DNA from: an uncultured Gemmatimonadota bacterium
Lineage (GTDB): Bacteria; JAAXHH01
Direction: 5' to 3'
NCBI GenBank assembly: GCA_951812955.1
Contig: OX638340.1
Span: 1,792,001 to 1,856,000 of the forward strand
Length of the DNA stretch: 64,000 bases
The stretch's first letter is position 1; every line of letters starts with the position of its first letter. Positions 7,952 through 41,445 of the stretch are shown one piece after another. Both the position numbers and the translations under genes were made by a program. The notes under the pieces are model-generated. The model ran no database searches. It was not told the DNA's origin and saw only the letters and a list, made by a program, of their open reading frames with translations.

Positions 7952-8272
7952 ATGCGTAACCAGAAACTGGCTCCTGTGCATCCCGGTGAGATTTTGCTAG
8001 AGGAGTTTCTCAAGCCAATGAACCTGAGCCAGAACCGCCTTGCGCTTTCCATCGGTGTACCGCCACGACGCATCAACGAAATCGTACTGGGAAAACGAGG
8101 CATAACCGCGGATACGGCCCTCAGGCTGGCTCGCTACTTCGGCATGTCGCCACAGTTTTGGATGGGCATTCAGATGGATTATGCGCTCGACGTTGCCGAA
8201 GATGAACTCTCAGATCGTCTGACGACTGAGGTTCGGCCACATCCAGCAACTAAGCAAGCCGCATCCTCCTGA
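7952..8272 (+). CDS. higA: HigA-family antitoxin-like XRE HTH protein (orphan; no higB upstream)
   Basis: HPGEILLEEFLKPMNLSQNRLALSIGVPPRRINEIVLGKRGITADTALRLARYFGMSPQFWMGIQMDYAL is the classic HigA/VapI signature. It sits in an AT-rich intergenic patch; no HigB-like reading frame was found in the 400 nt upstream. Confidence 0.7.
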   Translation: MRNQKLAPVHPGEILLEEFLKPMNLSQNRLALSIGVPPRRINEIVLGKRGITADTALRLARYFGMSPQFWMGIQMDYALDVAEDELSDRLTTEVRPHPATKQAASS

Positions 8273-8362
8273 GTGCTTGTACCCGGGATGATTAATCTCG
8301 AAAACGGGAGCCATCCTTTATCTCGGAATCAAAATGGGACGATTATACAGACATGAAGATTC

Positions 8363-8935
8363 ATGGGACCTGAAAAGAACAACACCAATACGGGACGGTC
8401 ATCCTCCCGGCCTCCCCTCGGTTTAAAAAGGGGCAAACTTTGTCTCTCACCCTACCGCTCCGAATGGCCCGCACTGTTCGAATCTGAGAAGAAGTTCATC
8501 GCATCTGCAATAAGAGATCACGTTAAGGAAATTCAGCACGTCGGCAGCACGTCGATACCGGGCATGCCCGCCAAGCCCATACTGGACTTAGGGATCGCAG
8601 TTGACGAGTTTGAAAACGCGCGGACGTGCATCGAACCGCTTACGGATATCGGTTACTTATTTAGAGGCGAACACGGAATCCCCCGAAGGCATTATTTCAC
8701 CAGGGGCGATCCGACGACCCATCACATCCACCTGGTGGAGGAATCCAGTGACGAATGGACGAAGCTGATCCGTTTCAGGGACCTCCTGAGGGCAGATCCC
8801 AAAACGTCTGAAGATTACCGTAACCTGAAACTCGACCTGTGGGAGAGACTTCCAGGTGACCGCAAAGCCTACCAGGCCGCCAAGGCTGCCTTTATAGGGA
8901 AGGTCTTACAGCGGACAGACAAGAAAAAAGACTGA
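8363..8935 (+). CDS. GrpB family protein (UPF0157, nucleotidyltransferase-like)
   Basis: WPALFESEKK...HVGSTSIPGMPAKPILDL matches the GrpB signature. Confidence 0.55.
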   Translation: MGPEKNNTNTGRSSSRPPLGLKRGKLCLSPYRSEWPALFESEKKFIASAIRDHVKEIQHVGSTSIPGMPAKPILDLGIAVDEFENARTCIEPLTDIGYLFRGEHGIPRRHYFTRGDPTTHHIHLVEESSDEWTKLIRFRDLLRADPKTSEDYRNLKLDLWERLPGDRKAYQAAKAAFIGKVLQRTDKKKD

Positions 8936-8973
8936 ATATTCGGTCACGCTGGTACTGTATTGAGCGACACTGC

Positions 8974-9573
8974 ATGGACACGAATAAGAAGATTGCCACG
9001 ATATTCGATATCGACGGTACACTGGTCGAAACTGCTGGTTTCGAAGATGAGCTATACATTGCCATGGTCAGGGACGTTCTTGGTGATGTCCGGATCCGCG
9101 AAGACTGGAGTACTTACAGGCATGTAACCGATATCGGTGTTCTGCGACAGGTGATGGAAGAGAACCAGATCCATGACGAGAGCAGAATCCAGGAAGTTCG
9201 TGCGAAGTTTGGAAAAACCGTGAGTCAGTACCTTCATGACGGAGGTGAATGCCTTCCAATCAACGGAGCCATTGGTCTTGTCGATATGCTCCTCTCTTCA
9301 AACCAATATGCGATTGGCATCGCCACAGGAGGTTGGGGACATACCGCCAAAATGAAACTGAACCATGCGGGATTTAACCTGCAGGACGTAGCCATGACTT
9401 CCAGCGACGATAGTGAAGAGCGTGTTACGATCATGCGGAAGTGTATAGACGCGCTTGGGGAATCATACCGTCGAATCGTTTACGTAGGCGACGCCGAGTG
9501 GGATGTTATTGCGACGCGGAAACTCGGATGGCAATTCATTGGAGTCGGAACACGACTGAAGGGAAAACGTTAA
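8974..9573 (+). CDS. HAD family hydrolase
   Basis: Motif I FDIDGTL; motif IV GDAEWD. Confidence 0.7.
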   Translation: MDTNKKIATIFDIDGTLVETAGFEDELYIAMVRDVLGDVRIREDWSTYRHVTDIGVLRQVMEENQIHDESRIQEVRAKFGKTVSQYLHDGGECLPINGAIGLVDMLLSSNQYAIGIATGGWGHTAKMKLNHAGFNLQDVAMTSSDDSEERVTIMRKCIDALGESYRRIVYVGDAEWDVIATRKLGWQFIGVGTRLKGKR

Positions 9574-9695
9574 AACTGGGTCGAAGACCTTGCACATCAT
9601 GACACGTTTTTGAAAATGCTCCATGCTTAGAAGGGGTATATCTATCTCTTGTACCGGATCCAGTCTGAATCAAACTCTAAAGGGGCTGGAGAATA

Positions 9696-36495: not shown

Positions 36496-37257
36496 TTGGA
36501 CAGCGAACTACTGAAACGGGGATTCGCACCTCGGCCGCTGACGGACGCGCAACGCAGCGCGCTGGACACCGATGGCTTCATCGTGCTGGAGGAGGTCATC
36601 TCGCCAGACTGGCTCTCCGAACTGCGCCATGCATTCGATGAGATATTTGACAGCGAGGGCGATAGAGCCGGTGAGGAGGTCTCCCAGATGGAAGGGGTGC
36701 GCCGGCTTGCCGATCTGGTCAACAAGGGATCGGTATTCGATGCGGTTTACCTGCAGCCCGAGCTTTTGACGGCCGTCTACCATGTCCTGCAGAGGCCGTT
36801 CAAACTGCACTCGCTCAACGGGCACGACCCGCTTCCCAGCAACGGGTTACAGGTGCTGCACGCCGATTGGGGCCAACCTGCCGAGCCCGGCGGGCCGTAT
36901 CATGTCGTTAACTCTTTGTGGATGCTCGACGATTTCACCCTCGCCAACGGTGCGTCACGCTGCGTGCCGGGCAGCCACCTGAAACCCGGCAGGATCGGCG
37001 ACCTCGTAACGGACCGCCTGGCGGACCACCCCGACCAGGTACACCTGACGGGCCGTGCGGGATCGGTTGCCGTATTCAACGGCAGCCTCTGGCACAGCTC
37101 GTATGTCAACCTCAGCGGTGCCCCTCGCCGGACCCTGCACTGCGCCTTCATAGCCCGCGAACACCCGCAACAGACTAATCAGCGGGAGTATCTGCGGCCC
37201 GAGACCGCCCAACGGCTATCCCCACTGGCGCGCTACATCCTCGACGTCCCTCCGTAA
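36496..37257 (+). CDS. Phytanoyl-CoA dioxygenase (PhyH) family protein
   Basis: VLHADWG...PGSHLKPG...SLWHSS motifs. TTG start with an AAGGA RBS. Confidence 0.7.
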   Translation: MDSELLKRGFAPRPLTDAQRSALDTDGFIVLEEVISPDWLSELRHAFDEIFDSEGDRAGEEVSQMEGVRRLADLVNKGSVFDAVYLQPELLTAVYHVLQRPFKLHSLNGHDPLPSNGLQVLHADWGQPAEPGGPYHVVNSLWMLDDFTLANGASRCVPGSHLKPGRIGDLVTDRLADHPDQVHLTGRAGSVAVFNGSLWHSSYVNLSGAPRRTLHCAFIAREHPQQTNQREYLRPETAQRLSPLARYILDVPP

Positions 37258-37496
37258 CACGATTACACGGTAGTTTGTTAATTTTTGTAGGGGAATTAGT
37301 ATGTAAAAACAACAATACGGCAGGCAATAGAAGTTGGGTCTAGTTGTTCCCACCCGTATTGTCCCCAAGTGCTGTACTTTCAACGTACATTCAGTCAATT
37401 AAAAAAATCGTGACCCACCTCTTTAATTCTGATGTTCATTCTCCTTCGGGTGATGTTTGGTTTGATTTCAGTCGACATTGTATCCTTACGTGCATT

Positions 37497-39572
37497 CTAG
37501 TTCACTAACTCAAATACATGCTTAACACTACCGTCCGGTTTTAACACGAGCCCAAACCACTTTTCCAACTTATGTGGGTATACACTTTCTTTGGAATCCC
37601 GGTGAAATTTCTCCTCTAACACCTCCACGGTAGATCTACTACAGTAAATAAACAGTCCTATAGGTAAACCTGGGAACAAAGCACGAACTGTCTGGCTCTT
37701 CTTATTTAATAAATGCCGATTACAAATCCGATTGATATTTTTGTTTATAGTTTTACAAACATCGTCAGACAAGGTTATCAAGAAAAGCCCAAGGTCGATT
37801 TTCAATGGATCGGGGGAGGTTTCCAATTCCTTCAAGATGCTTCCCAAGGGCGTACCAACCAATCTTGTCAGTATGCCATCTGGAGTCGGTATTCCGTCTA
37901 TGCCGTCCCTCCTGACCGCCATTGCAGTATCGAGATGCACTGAGAAATCGTCATCAATTAACATCAAGTCAATATCGTCTCTAAGCCATAGGTTATGTCT
38001 TAGGTGATAGGACAGCAACATATGCTCATGACTCGCCATCAGACGCTCGCCAAATCGTGCCCGTAACTCAAGGTAACTTAAAAACCATAGAGGCGTAGAT
38101 AACATTTCTGATATCGCATCGAGTGAAAAAACGTCGGTGACAAGTGGAGGTAAAATCTGAGTAGTTGACTTGTATTCTAAAAACTGTCTCAACTGAAAAG
38201 CCAACGCCGGGTAATGGTCCGCGATGATTGCTACAGGAAAAATAACCTTCTGAGATTCTTCTATACGGATTACCTCGTTGTTCTTGGTATATAGACTTAC
38301 GGACTGATCTCCGAGGAGTTTAGCACACTCAAATGACTGCTCTACTGCATCTTGAATCGCCATCCTAAAGTCGGATCTTAACACTCGATCGTTCCCTCTT
38401 CGAGATTCCAGTGTTAGCCTTTTTGATTTCGATTGCACCAAAACAACCCGGTCGCCAAATATCACCAAGACATCAATCTCTCCAAGTGTGTGCCCTTTGG
38501 TCTTTCGTAACTCGACGTTTTTATACACTCGATCAGAACCAAAGACATGAACAAGTCTATCATATGTAAAGCTCTCCGTGAAATCCCCTCGATGTGTAAG
38601 TGCTGTTGGTGCATACAAACTATCAGTGCACATCCAATAGAACGGTGTTTCATAAAACGCTTCCGTTAATCCGTAATACTGCAAGAGTACGTATTTATCT
38701 ACATCTCTACGTATGAACGGGTAGATATAGGCTTTGTTAAAGTCATTGATAGTTGAGAAGCCAGCATTTCTTTCGCAAGAAGGTAAAGTAAATGCGTTTA
38801 CAAATGCTTGAACGTCTTCTGTAGGAAATCCTATATAGGAAGCAAGTTCAGTGCAGGAAAAGGTAAAGAAAGGTAAGACCGCCCGATCCTTAGCAGGCCC
38901 TTTTATTTGGTCGCTCAAGACTGTTTCTAAACTCCGGTTTAGGACGTAAGGAATCCCATCACACACCGCCTTTCCAACTACCAAATCAACTGATTTGTTC
39001 TGAGAAAGCCAGTCGGAATCGAGACTGTATTTTGTCAATGCTAGATCACGGTATTGAAAGGGATATGCAGACTCGCCTGCGTAGAAAATGGGTTCCCTAA
39101 GGGATTCCCCGGTAGAGAATGGATTTGCATTAGGGACAGACCCGCCGACTACTCTCCGCTGCATCAACTTCAACGTAGGTTGCACCATAGTTAAGTGCAA
39201 TTCATCCAACAGTTCCGCGGACTTCTTGATGTAATCATTAAGAACTGTAGGTGTTGGCATGGAAAAGTCGATAGGGCCTCGCATCATGAGACCGATTAGC
39301 GTGGTGATTTCGGTACGGATTAGCTGCGAATGGGATCGCCATTGAAGAAGTTCGTCGGAATTTAGTTCATCCTTGAAACCGACGACATTGTCCCGCAGTG
39401 AAATAAAAGCGATTGCGTGAATAAAACCTACGGAGAGGCACAATGCAGCCAGGTCATCAAACACAGACTGTTCTGAGCGCATATAAACGATCCTGGGCTG
39501 TAGCAGACAATTCCAAATTGCGTCTATTGGATTCGAAAGCCAAGAGTTGGATTCTGAATCCGAACCGTTCAT
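37497..39572 (-). CDS. Large (691 aa) protein with a central NERD-like PD-(D/E)xK nuclease motif; N- and C-terminal regions unassigned
   Basis: FGSDRVYKNVELRKTKGHTLGEIDVLVIFGDRVVLVQSKSK at residues ~343-384 fits the NERD / PD-(D/E)xK pattern (GE..hh...E-h-D-hhhh...hhhh-Q/E-x-K). No Walker A motif. AT-rich codon usage. Confidence 0.55.
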   Translation of the reverse strand: MNGSDSESNSWLSNPIDAIWNCLLQPRIVYMRSEQSVFDDLAALCLSVGFIHAIAFISLRDNVVGFKDELNSDELLQWRSHSQLIRTEITTLIGLMMRGPIDFSMPTPTVLNDYIKKSAELLDELHLTMVQPTLKLMQRRVVGGSVPNANPFSTGESLREPIFYAGESAYPFQYRDLALTKYSLDSDWLSQNKSVDLVVGKAVCDGIPYVLNRSLETVLSDQIKGPAKDRAVLPFFTFSCTELASYIGFPTEDVQAFVNAFTLPSCERNAGFSTINDFNKAYIYPFIRRDVDKYVLLQYYGLTEAFYETPFYWMCTDSLYAPTALTHRGDFTESFTYDRLVHVFGSDRVYKNVELRKTKGHTLGEIDVLVIFGDRVVLVQSKSKRLTLESRRGNDRVLRSDFRMAIQDAVEQSFECAKLLGDQSVSLYTKNNEVIRIEESQKVIFPVAIIADHYPALAFQLRQFLEYKSTTQILPPLVTDVFSLDAISEMLSTPLWFLSYLELRARFGERLMASHEHMLLSYHLRHNLWLRDDIDLMLIDDDFSVHLDTAMAVRRDGIDGIPTPDGILTRLVGTPLGSILKELETSPDPLKIDLGLFLITLSDDVCKTINKNINRICNRHLLNKKSQTVRALFPGLPIGLFIYCSRSTVEVLEEKFHRDSKESVYPHKLEKWFGLVLKPDGSVKHVFELVN

Positions 39573-39708
39573 CCATGGCTTTTAACTTTAGATTCTCCAG
39601 ATAGCTGTTTCGGATAATTAAACAAGTCAGTTCGCCGGAAACATCTCGTGCAACCCGCGCTGATACACCGTTGGTGACTACAGCTTCACCGTCGGTGTGA
39701 ACGCACCT

Positions 39709-39957
39709 TTACCGGTTGTTGTGATTATCCACGGGTTTGTTTTCTTCTGAAGCGTGGTGGTCATCGCCTAACGGGATTAAATCCTTCGATATAGCCAGCG
39801 AACCGCCTATTAGAGCCATGAGTGGAGACTTTACGACTTCGTAAGCGTCCTCCGCTGTCATTCCTCCGCTCCAACACATCGCAACGAAGATGATTATAAG
39901 CGAAGAGTAACCTAAACCCACAAGGACCAGTACATTCTTCCGCCACGGAACCTTCAT
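39709..39957 (-). CDS. Small 2-TM membrane protein preceding the NERD-like gene
   Basis: ORF 39709..39990 trimmed to the second of two adjacent ATGs (GGAGGA RBS). It carries the hydrophobic helices VLVLVGLGYSSLIIIFVAMCW and LMALIGGSLAI. Same strand and same low-GC composition as the NERD gene. Confidence 0.45.
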   Translation of the reverse strand: MKVPWRKNVLVLVGLGYSSLIIIFVAMCWSGGMTAEDAYEVVKSPLMALIGGSLAISKDLIPLGDDHHASEENKPVDNHNNR

Positions 39958-40029
39958 CATATCCTCCTTTTGGGTATTCTCCCAATTCACATAATATGTT
40001 TGACAATCGCTTTATAATGCTCCGAGCAA

Positions 40030-41445
40030 CTAACCAAACAACTCCTGCACCATTCCCCGCGCCCGATCGATCACGGTTTCGAGACAGCCGGGTGCTAGCT
40101 TGGCCCAGTAGGTGACATCTTCGTTGGCCTCGTGTCCACCGCGGGCATATGCCTCCCTCGTCGGCAGGTAACCGACATAGTGCGTCGTGAGGTGTGCCGG
40201 AAACAGATAGGAAGCTGGCGAGTTTACTTTAAGCGACAGTTGTCCTTCCACAAAGGGCTCACCGGGGAGGCCTACAATACAAAGATTACCGATGCGCAAG
40301 GCCTGTATCTCATAGCTGAACTCGCCGTCCCTCTGCCTGCATAGTTCGACGCTGCGGGTCGATGCCGCCCGAAACCAGCGCGGCTCCACTTGACCGTTCT
40401 CTTCGCGCGGCGGTTCCGGATGCTCAGTGAGAATCGCATCGACTTCGCGCAGTCGTTCGTCCGATATCTCGCGAAAGGGCAGTCTGATCTTTTCTATCCT
40501 TGTATCTAGCGCAGCATCGCCGGCGAACGTCATGTTGCGCATGATACGTTCGCTCAGACCGGATAATCCTCGCCCCATACGCCGGTGGTCCGGCTTAAAA
40601 TCGGGGTCGAAGGGGTGCCAGGGGTTGATGTTGCCGCAACATCCGTTGACGACCAACGGCACGGAATCCGGATCGAAAATCTGCTGCATCTCCCGGGACC
40701 AGGCGCCGGGCCAATCCGCCGACGCGGCCATGAAGGTCTCCTCGTTTCCGTATGCATTGACCGGATGACACGTGTAGTGCAGGAGAAAGGCCAGCGGTTT
40801 CGAATTCATATCCTGGACGCAGCACACGCCTACCTCCGGGTCCATCGGCCCTTCCAGGTAGCACACATCCGAGATCCCGAAGGGCTGCCGCTCCCGACCA
40901 AGGGGTCTGGGCATAACTATGGTACCGTCCCTTCGAACGCCGCGGCGGTTAAAAGCCAGGTCGCCCAACACGCCGCGGCCCAGACCGATGCGTGCCGGTT
41001 GTAGCCTGCCGGCTGCCTCGACCGCGGCCTCAACGGCAGCGGCTGCGGCCCGGTCGCCATAGGCGCGTTCGGCCCCCCGCAGATACTCCGTTTCCTCGCT
41101 AGTCTCCATTGGAAAATCCGAATCCAGCATGAAGTAACCGAGGCTCGGGGCGGAATGCGTCTGCGTCGCCTGGACCATGATGGCGTCTCGTTCTATGCCC
41201 GTCTGCTCGCTGATGGCCGCACGGATCCGGTCTGTGTATTCACCGGTGACAATGGTGAGATCCAGGATCACGATGCAGACGCGCCGCCCATCCGCTTCGA
41301 AAACGATGGCCTTGGCAAAGAGCGGATCCAAAACGGCCTGGGTCGGACGGTGGTCACCGGCTCCGCTGCCCGCCAGATGCGTCCCCTCCGAAGGGGATAT
41401 GTCGATCATTGCCGCACCGGCGCTCAGCTGGTTCGACTCGTTCAT
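40030..41445 (-). CDS. Neutral/alkaline ceramidase family protein
   Basis: ORF trimmed to the ATG at 41445 (AAAGGAAAG RBS). AIMVQATQTHSAPSLGY and LLHYTCHPVNAYG resemble neutral-ceramidase catalytic-domain motifs (THTHSGP / AIHPVS) as remembered. Confidence 0.55.
   Translation of the reverse strand: MNESNQLSAGAAMIDISPSEGTHLAGSGAGDHRPTQAVLDPLFAKAIVFEADGRRVCIVILDLTIVTGEYTDRIRAAISEQTGIERDAIMVQATQTHSAPSLGYFMLDSDFPMETSEETEYLRGAERAYGDRAAAAAVEAAVEAAGRLQPARIGLGRGVLGDLAFNRRGVRRDGTIVMPRPLGRERQPFGISDVCYLEGPMDPEVGVCCVQDMNSKPLAFLLHYTCHPVNAYGNEETFMAASADWPGAWSREMQQIFDPDSVPLVVNGCCGNINPWHPFDPDFKPDHRRMGRGLSGLSERIMRNMTFAGDAALDTRIEKIRLPFREISDERLREVDAILTEHPEPPREENGQVEPRWFRAASTRSVELCRQRDGEFSYEIQALRIGNLCIVGLPGEPFVEGQLSLKVNSPASYLFPAHLTTHYVGYLPTREAYARGGHEANEDVTYWAKLAPGCLETVIDRARGMVQELFG

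Follow-up and report, generated by a model that had tools for sequence, protein, structure and literature searches.

What does a large nuclease-like protein do when it is encoded in a low-GC islet among metabolic genes, and does the small membrane protein encoded beside it belong to the same system? The question is raised by a locus in a 64,000-nucleotide stretch of an uncultured Gemmatimonadota genome (contig OX638340.1, positions 1,792,001 to 1,856,000, forward strand; assembly GCA_951812955.1), called the window below. An earlier interpretation made from the letters of the DNA (the sequence-only reading) took the two genes for one candidate defence module. According to the analysis described here, the islet is a recent horizontal acquisition of two unrelated accessory genes. 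The large protein could be a single-protein immune nuclease directed against phages or other mobile DNA, to which we assign a probability of about 0.58. The small gene comes from a separate family and was co-transferred as a passenger; it is not a partner. The data support a self-contained nuclease without an NTPase or a partner, which moves horizontally and is often found among immune genes.

Followed upstream, the frame of the large gene stays open as far as an ATG at position 39572 (37497..39572), from which a protein of 691 amino acids (aa) is read. This open reading frame (ORF) exists, as the sequence-only reading stated; its length has to be revised. Since MRSEQ is where all homologues begin, and since the copy of the protein in the database (P0001) comprises 661 aa, the gene is placed at 37497..39482 with the start at M31, which judging by the homologues is almost certainly the true one. 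Residue numbers follow the 691-aa ORF, so that M31 is the start of the 661-aa form. Coordinates of all features are given in Table 1.

The AlphaFold2 model calculated from the family alignment is confident (predicted local distance difference test, pLDDT, 78; predicted template modelling score, pTM, 0.80) and consists of four parts: an all-helical N-terminal domain, a winged-helix-like domain, an alpha/beta nuclease core and a C-terminal domain. Pfam recognizes a single domain in the window protein, NERD (PF08378; residues 329–421, 25.0 bits at a gathering cut-off of 22.1), and the same domain is matched in 28 of 29 aligned family members (best E 1.6e-7). E333, D367, Q380, K382, S383 and K384 are invariant in these 29 sequences, which come from several phyla. 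In the model, the acidic partner residue E333 is located in the helix preceding the catalytic core motif (321–344), D367 in strand 362–372 and Q380-x-K382 in strand 375–382. E333/D367/Q380-x-K382 occupy the canonical PD-(D/E)xK positions, on helix 1 and strands 2 and 3 of the predicted alpha-beta-beta-beta-alpha-beta core fold. The motif FGSDRVYKNVEL...GEIDVLVIFGDRVVLVQSKSK, on which the sequence-only reading had based its NERD / PD-(D/E)xK assignment, is present in the translation, and both the Pfam score and the residue layout of the model bear that assignment out. Its statement that an ATPase motif is absent also holds, as no Walker A motif was found in the large protein.

The regions on both sides of the nuclease had been described as matching nothing recognizable, and they remain so after Pfam, Protein Data Bank (PDB) and structure comparisons. 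The N-terminal domain, which holds the near-invariant segments RE.IFY..ESAY.FQYRD (159–176) and LIRTE (84–88), gave no Pfam, PDB or PADLOC match. PDB sequence searches, whether by single sequence or by family profile, returned chance-level matches alone (seipin, FAM96A). Structure comparison gave no informative relatives of the N- and C-terminal domains; for the nuclease domain, DNA endonucleases came out closest. In the region of residues 144–176 (window positions ~39045–39143, minus strand), RE.IFY..ESAY.FQYRD is better conserved than any other motif of the protein except those of the nuclease core. Much of it falls in the one long loop that the model predicts with low confidence (residues 144–169, pLDDT <50).

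The family to which the protein belongs is large. More than 1,473 homologous proteins were found, and the best of them are 47–57% identical over 95% of the length. A profile search of 1.84 billion cluster representatives placed 770 clusters in the family at E<=1e-30; with the threshold relaxed to E<=1e-10, the number was 1,744. Nearly all of the best 150 representatives are full-length (~660–750 aa), the few of 465–650 aa resembling truncated gene calls, and the architecture is therefore fixed. Conservation extends over the whole length, with ~95 invariant columns among the 29 sequences from several phyla. A dual-nuclease variant also occurs: in P0076 (914 aa), an N-terminal HNH_5 endonuclease domain precedes the complete protein.

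The main variable element is a SEC-C-type zinc tail (CxC...C[CH]), which ends 64 of the 120 closest homologues. The window copy lacks it; tail-less members, which make up about half of the family, are otherwise fully conserved. RefSeq names the members 'SEC-C metal-binding domain-containing protein', 'nuclease-related domain-containing protein' or 'prepilin peptidase'. The last label is carried by many members (P0060, P0062; plasmid matches H4, H5, H7) and looks like a propagated annotation error, because domain evidence for the name is absent. A dedicated model of the family is found neither in PADLOC 2.0 (2023) nor in NCBIfam 20 (2026) or PHROGs, and Pfam provides the generic NERD model only. 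PADLOC gave nothing significant for the window protein (CARF_PDDEXK, E 0.06, nuclease core only) and matches other members of the family at the level of single domains only; the sole NCBIfam match of the window protein is the sub-threshold GapS1 model (NF047931, E = 0.07) at residues 361–426. The window nuclease is unmatched in PHROGs, where one homologue matches through the SEC-C tail only. No name for the family was found in the literature searched on NERD, SEC-C, defence and single-gene systems.

Relatives occur in 391 of ~185,000 species-representative genomes (~0.2%), scattered over many phyla: Acidobacteriota, Alpha-, Beta- and Gammaproteobacteria, Nitrospirota, Desulfobacterota, Planctomycetota, Cyanobacteria, Bacteroidota and Firmicutes. 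At the DNA level, complete E. coli genomes contain no homologue. The family is present on 34 plasmids, 22 of them conjugative, including 19 Agrobacterium pAt plasmids and two from Halobaculum, and on 14 viral or prophage-like contigs of IMG/VR. SEC-C-bearing homologues are encoded, for example, on Agrobacterium pAt (WP_099086648.1) and on Diaphorobacter plasmids (WP_166312380.1). Insertion sites vary between genomes, and in most of them the gene is ordinary cargo, carried in larger islands equipped with integrases. A shorter, 26%-identical homologue that retains the SEC-C end is encoded in a predicted prophage (L116, ~8000–9647, plus strand). It stands directly upstream of a gene for a tail tape-measure-like protein of ~1,480 aa, a moron-like position.

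The genomic neighbourhood was surveyed for 48 homologues, taking on either side the two closest ORFs (nearest and second neighbour) with a minimum length of 150 aa; ORF calling was crude. The 96 nearest neighbours match 90 PADLOC models at E<=1e-15, including BrxL, Hhe, MkoA/C, SoFic, GajB, IetS, type II restriction endonuclease (REase) and PDC-S05/06/26/37. Their Pfam families include AAA_13, Abi_alpha, HipA, Fic, RhuM, rve and TrwC. The 94 second neighbours match 33 models (among them type I REase, PglZ, type II methyltransferase, IetA, GajB, SAVED-HNH), and Pfam finds four phage integrases, two resolvases and two type IV secretion system coupling proteins among them. PADLOC matches at E<=1e-50 were obtained for at least 17 of 190 neighbours and for none of 52 control genes, the proteins of this window. 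The Fisher test on these numbers gives p = 0.014. Against a baseline of 1.5%, the share of bacterial genes estimated in the literature to be antiphage, the binomial p is 6e-9. The neighbours of the nuclease family are enriched in defence and mobile-element genes. The anti-phage context proposed by the sequence-only reading is thus found for the family, but this islet itself lies among metabolic genes.

The individual loci have the look of defence islands or of integrative elements. One contains IetA/IetS, a UvrD helicase, an N6/N4 methyltransferase, DUF4145 and AAA_13; another BrxR, a Lit-type Peptidase_U49, nSTAND and HATPase proteins. A P4-type integrase, RelE/MqsA and HsdR occur beside housekeeping genes in one more locus, and in yet another a tyrosine recombinase gene directly adjoins the nuclease gene. 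On an Agrobacterium tumefaciens pAt plasmid (L095; NZ_CP042276.1, 17753–37684), genes for a 1,143-aa AAA protein and a PLD-like protein lie on one side; on the other side is a His-Xaa-Ser cluster (HxsABC, radical S-adenosylmethionine type), with a tyrosine recombinase nearby. This region looks like a plasmid-borne conflict island. Methyltransferases were found in just a few of the 48 loci, where they belong to other systems, and none is present in the islet.

Several observations weigh against an immune function of the large protein. The neighbourhood association is statistical and moderate: ~9–13% of near neighbours are recognizable defence proteins, and the Fisher test gives p 0.014–0.04 with its small control. 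The counts are lower bounds, and the control set comprises 52 genes. Many loci, including that in this window, are flanked by housekeeping genes; the 52 window proteins match only 2 generic PADLOC models, and no defence island surrounds the islet. The deposited phages of INPHARED gave zero matches to the nuclease family. For an immune gene, conservation across phyla (~50% identity) is unusually high. The winged-helix-like segment has an acidic isoelectric point of 4.7, atypical for a DNA reader. In the NERD pattern E...D...E-x-K, the residues E333, D367 and K382 are invariant, and the third acid is an invariant Gln (Q380-S-K382).

Two of these points could also be explained by another function, namely that of a DNA-binding, repair or regulatory factor that keeps the NERD fold and is catalytically inactive or non-immune. 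A Gln where the (D/E)xK triad normally has an acid suits such a factor, and the very high full-length conservation is more typical of housekeeping proteins. QxK is kept, however, in relatives of 26–31% identity ('VVQAKSKRIT', 'FQIKSKRIT'), and QxK variants are catalytically active in TnsA and HinP1I. Such a factor agrees poorly with a scattered occurrence in so small a fraction of species genomes, with absence from the close relatives of the host, with presence on plasmids and prophages and with the invariance of E333, D367 and K382. This explanation is considered improbable.

The proteins of the family (~660–720 aa) have the following predicted domain order: a helical N-domain, a winged-helix-like domain, a NERD-type PD-(D/E)xK domain, a C-terminal domain and, in about half of the members, the SEC-C zinc tail. 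In an immune nuclease of this kind, the non-catalytic domains would respond either to some feature of the invading nucleic acid or to a cue of infection. On the model of methylase-less fusions between a winged helix and a nuclease, such a feature could be a modified base or an unusual structure of the DNA. Either kind of recognition would permit cutting by the E333/D367/Q380-x-K382 site, and the helical, winged-helix-like and C-terminal domains could serve target recognition or autoinhibition. Nuclease activity, substrate, trigger and defence role are inferences. DNA is the more likely substrate by structural analogy, because the structural neighbours of the nuclease domain are DNA endonucleases.

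Alternatively, RNA or translation could be targeted, with the SEC-C tail docking on ribosomes or SecB and the NERD site cleaving phage or host RNA. A precedent for the catalytic part is ZwsA (Zowangsin), a stand-alone NERD protein of Pseudomonas aeruginosa that acts as an RNA endonuclease in defence against RNA phages (bioRxiv 10.64898/2026.04.06.716636). Precedents for the tail are Rugutis, a validated lactococcal single-gene antiphage protein of 359 aa with a SEC-C motif (PMC11381338), and SEC-C-type metal-binding domains such as that of SecA, which bind SecB and ribosomes. The tail is retained in the distant prophage homologue as well as in the close homologues counted above. In the family alignment A1, the members that match PADLOC PDC-S12 and CBASS E1–E2/E2 are precisely the nine with a SEC-C tail; the matches to PDC-S12 / CBASS E2 probably run through the tail, and it is suggested therefore that the SEC-C tail recurs on several defence-associated proteins. 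On the other hand, the window copy and about half of the family do without the tail and are conserved in all other respects, the closest structural relatives cut DNA, and an RNA-binding domain such as S4 was not detected in the window protein or in the aligned homologues. RNA targeting is regarded as unlikely.

A more novel reading can be formulated for the whole protein, in which the family would be a hitherto unrecognized class of self-contained immune proteins that unite sensor and nuclease. Two domains of novel fold, marked by the invariant segments IFY..ESAY.FQYRD and VRRDG..G..TP.GILT, could sense infection; the frequent SEC-C tail could keep the enzyme attached to ribosomes or SecB, so that the QxK NERD site could cut phage nucleic acid co-translationally. 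We consider this a long shot. If true, such a ribosome-tethered nuclease defence would have no known counterpart.

The gene reached its present position in a compact insertion. The GC content is 0.39–0.48 across ~37.2–40.0 kb and 0.59–0.65 in the immediate flanks, and the islet is the lowest-GC stretch of the whole window (0.436 overall; 0.575 in the remainder). The GC content at third codon positions is 0.45 in the large gene and 0.54 in the small one, as compared with 0.76 in the flanking PhyH gene and 0.70 in the ceramidase-like gene. Two further stretches, at 7–14 kb and 21–22 kb, have a moderately lowered GC content (0.50–0.54 vs 0.57–0.64 elsewhere). The islet fills the gap from the PhyH stop codon (37255–37257) to the stop codon of the ceramidase-like gene (40030–40032). 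The site is empty in all four sampled relatives (long metagenomic contigs), whose PhyH proteins are 94, 90, 86 and 85% identical to that of the window and in which the convergent PhyH and ceramidase-like genes are separated by 13, 5, 44 and 45 bp. Gene order in the relatives is that of the window: citrate synthase, isocitrate-dehydrogenase-like, PhyH, short-chain dehydrogenase, PhyH, and then ceramidase-like, ERG4/ERG24-like, PhyH, DUF4377 and peroxidase. In junction alignments (A3, A4), positions 37258–40029 stand in place of the 13-bp spacer of the closest relative, and homology resumes exactly at the two stop codons. The borders 37258 and 40029 are exact because they follow from comparison with the empty sites. 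The GC drop between a PhyH and a ceramidase-like gene, the two co-directional ORFs, both on the minus strand, and the recent horizontal insertion are all points on which the sequence-only reading was right; for the last of them, the four empty relatives and the deviant composition are the evidence.

The form of the insertion raises the question of whether the nuclease gene is a selfish element of homing or addiction type that spreads or retains itself. Target-site duplications, terminal inverted repeats, tRNA genes and recombinase genes were searched for at the islet and not found; promoters and terminators at its borders did not exceed chance, and an Rfam scan gave no RNA family. A minimal and precise insertion between conserved convergent genes, lacking a recombinase, repeats and tRNA, resembles free-standing homing endonuclease genes and mobile restriction–modification (R-M) units, and the family is frequent on conjugative plasmids and beside integrases and transposases. 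However, insertion sites differ between genomes, most copies travel as cargo of larger integrase-bearing islands, and an antitoxin or methylase partner able to create addiction was not found. The PhyH/ceramidase junction is not an integration hotspot among the sampled relatives, and there is no sign of recurrent homing to it because all four are empty. Selfishness as the explanation is doubtful, slightly more so than RNA targeting.

The second gene of the islet was described by the sequence-only reading as coding for an 82-aa two-helix protein. The gene is real and has a strong Shine-Dalgarno sequence, but its product has one clear transmembrane segment and a shorter invariant hydrophobic segment instead of two unambiguous transmembrane helices. 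It has 131 homologues of 75–95 aa (50–77% identity), which form an unannotated family. Its members share a basic N-terminus and one strong transmembrane segment; PLMALIGGSLAISKDLI is invariant among them, and the acidic tail varies. The homologues (P0121–P0240; loci L087–L093) come from metagenome-assembled genomes labelled in the source as Acidobacteria, Deltaproteobacteria and Rhodobacter, and they are situated in variable regions rich in insertion sequence (IS) elements and hypothetical genes.

The two genes could form a two-gene abortive-infection or defence module in which a membrane sensor or effector works with the nuclease, as the sequence-only reading proposed. They are co-directional, share a foreign composition and lie in the same 2.8-kb insertion, and the small gene belongs to a conserved family. 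Nevertheless, the small protein is not encoded near the nuclease in any of 83 nuclease-family loci (tblastn, best E = 2.5), and the nuclease is absent from all seven small-protein loci, where the neighbours are a small HNH protein, an SNF2 helicase, IS21 and other transposases, rve and hypothetical proteins. In the islet itself, the genes are 226 bp apart. The sequence-only reading had asked for the conservation of the pair across genomes: no partner is conserved on either side of the nuclease gene, and no ORF cluster recurs beside it, the largest having 4–7 members from close relatives only. The two-gene module is largely refuted by this non-co-occurrence, and of the explanations considered here it appears the least probable. 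The pairing is found in this islet alone; therefore co-transfer is the simplest explanation, and co-location in one small islet is no evidence of a functional pair.

Table 1. Features of the islet and of the genes that it carries (window coordinates; residues numbered in the 691-aa ORF)
Feature	Position	Strand	Description and basis
Low-GC acquired islet	37258..40029	.	2,772 bp; composition, empty sites of relatives, junction alignments
Nuclease-family gene	37497..39482	-	661 aa, start M31 (MRSEQ...); stand-alone NERD / PD-(D/E)xK
C-terminal domain, residues 481-691	37500..38132	-	predicted; helical part, then strand-strand-helix-strand-strand subdomain
NERD / PD-(D/E)xK nuclease domain, residues ~299-480	38133..38678	-	predicted; alpha/beta core
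Catalytic core motif GEID(367)...Q(380)-S-K(382)-SK, residues 365-384	38421..38480	-	putative; conservation and model
Winged-helix-like domain, residues ~231-298	38679..38882	-	predicted (strand-helix-helix-helix-strand-strand)
N-terminal all-helical domain, residues 31-230	38883..39482	-	predicted structure and conservation
Small membrane protein gene, 82 aa	39709..39957	-	ORF and homologues (enclosing ORF 39709..39990)
Shine-Dalgarno AAGGAGG of the small gene	39963..39969	-	5 nt before ATG; read from the sequence

The surroundings of the islet in the window are metabolic genes (Pfam: PhyH, HAD, citrate synthase and similar). The part at 30–46 kb, syntenic in the four relatives L084, L085, L117 and L118, contains five genes of PhyH-family dioxygenases, two citrate-synthase-like genes and genes resembling those of isocitrate/isopropylmalate dehydrogenase, ceramidase and ERG4/ERG24 sterol reductase, together with DUF4377 and peroxidase genes. 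The version in L085 includes in addition a steroid-dehydrogenase-like gene and a methyltransferase gene. A lipid or sterol/sphingolipid-type pathway is a possible function of this host cluster.

If the immune function of the large protein is confirmed, a large single-gene system would be added to the known ones, with at least 770 clusters at 50% identity and with members on haloarchaeal plasmids. A function would also be provided for two conserved domains without structural relatives and for a SEC-C tail that recurs on conflict proteins. The candidate is solid and widespread; it is one of many nuclease-type candidates and overturns no current ideas.

A number of known systems were compared with the protein and rejected. 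Models of Shedu (SduA, DUF4263) in Pfam and PADLOC are unmatched. No HamA-type nuclease beside a HamB helicase was found, as Hachiman (HamA + HamB) would have it, and for Gabija (GajA + GajB) there is neither a Walker A motif nor a GajA match, the GajB-like neighbours being sporadic and derived from other systems. The sequence-only reading had set the protein apart from these three systems by its domain order, and the lack of PADLOC matches agrees with it. The match to GapS1, a single-protein antiphage family, reaches 11.9 bits at a cut-off of 320 and covers only the nuclease core (361–426). The CRISPR ancillary nucleases Can2/Card1 (CARF-PD-(D/E)xK) were rejected as well: the N-terminal 230 residues are all-helical in the model, with no CARF or Rossmann-like sensor, the CARF_PDDEXK match covers profile positions 238–304, that is, the nuclease part only, and no type III CRISPR context was seen. 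Type IIS restriction enzymes and nickases (FokI, N.BspD6I / R.BspD6I) share ~10% identity with the protein, which has no conserved adjacent methyltransferase as a type II/IIS R-M system would; these enzymes also lack a counterpart of the C-terminal domain and the SEC-C tail.

In the reviews examined, NERD is named only for Mokosh type I and Nhi-like systems, and its function is entered as 'N/A' (PMC10952713). Nhi/Nhi-like proteins and Mokosh type I resemble the family in their Pfam NERD domain and in being located in defence islands. In them, NERD occurs together with helicase or ATPase modules, either in one chain or as a partner, whereas no Walker A motif, helicase domain or PADLOC Nhi/Mko match was found here. 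Rugutis is similar in combining a SEC-C motif with an otherwise unmatched fold, which parallels the tail on about half of the nuclease family. It differs in the position of the motif, which is at the N-terminus, and in having no reported nuclease domain; the window copy has no SEC-C motif.

ZwsA, too, is one large protein of several domains with NERD in the centre, and it has no partner gene. Its catalytic residues E535/D567/E580/K582 have been validated by mutation (bioRxiv 10.64898/2026.04.06.716636), and their spacing (32, 13, 2) is close to that of E333/D367/Q380/K382 (34, 13, 2). The two proteins differ in architecture: ZwsA is VHS-DUF647-NERD-S4, and VHS, DUF647 and S4 were not detected here in profile scans, the comparison being made by description. 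The NERD domain of ZwsA is also ~200 residues further from the N-terminus, and it has ExK in place of QxK.

DpnI, FcyTI and Psp4BI are winged-helix fusion endonucleases that act as type IV restriction enzymes (PMC11037411). Like them, the protein described here would combine a winged-helix-like domain, predicted in this case, with PD-(D/E)xK in one polypeptide and has no cognate methyltransferase. Those enzymes are small two-domain proteins, whereas here the acidic winged-helix-like segment is N-terminal to the nuclease and lies between two further large conserved domains. What is new in comparison with the known systems would be the architecture: the family plausibly belongs to a known class, stand-alone PD-(D/E)xK defence nucleases.

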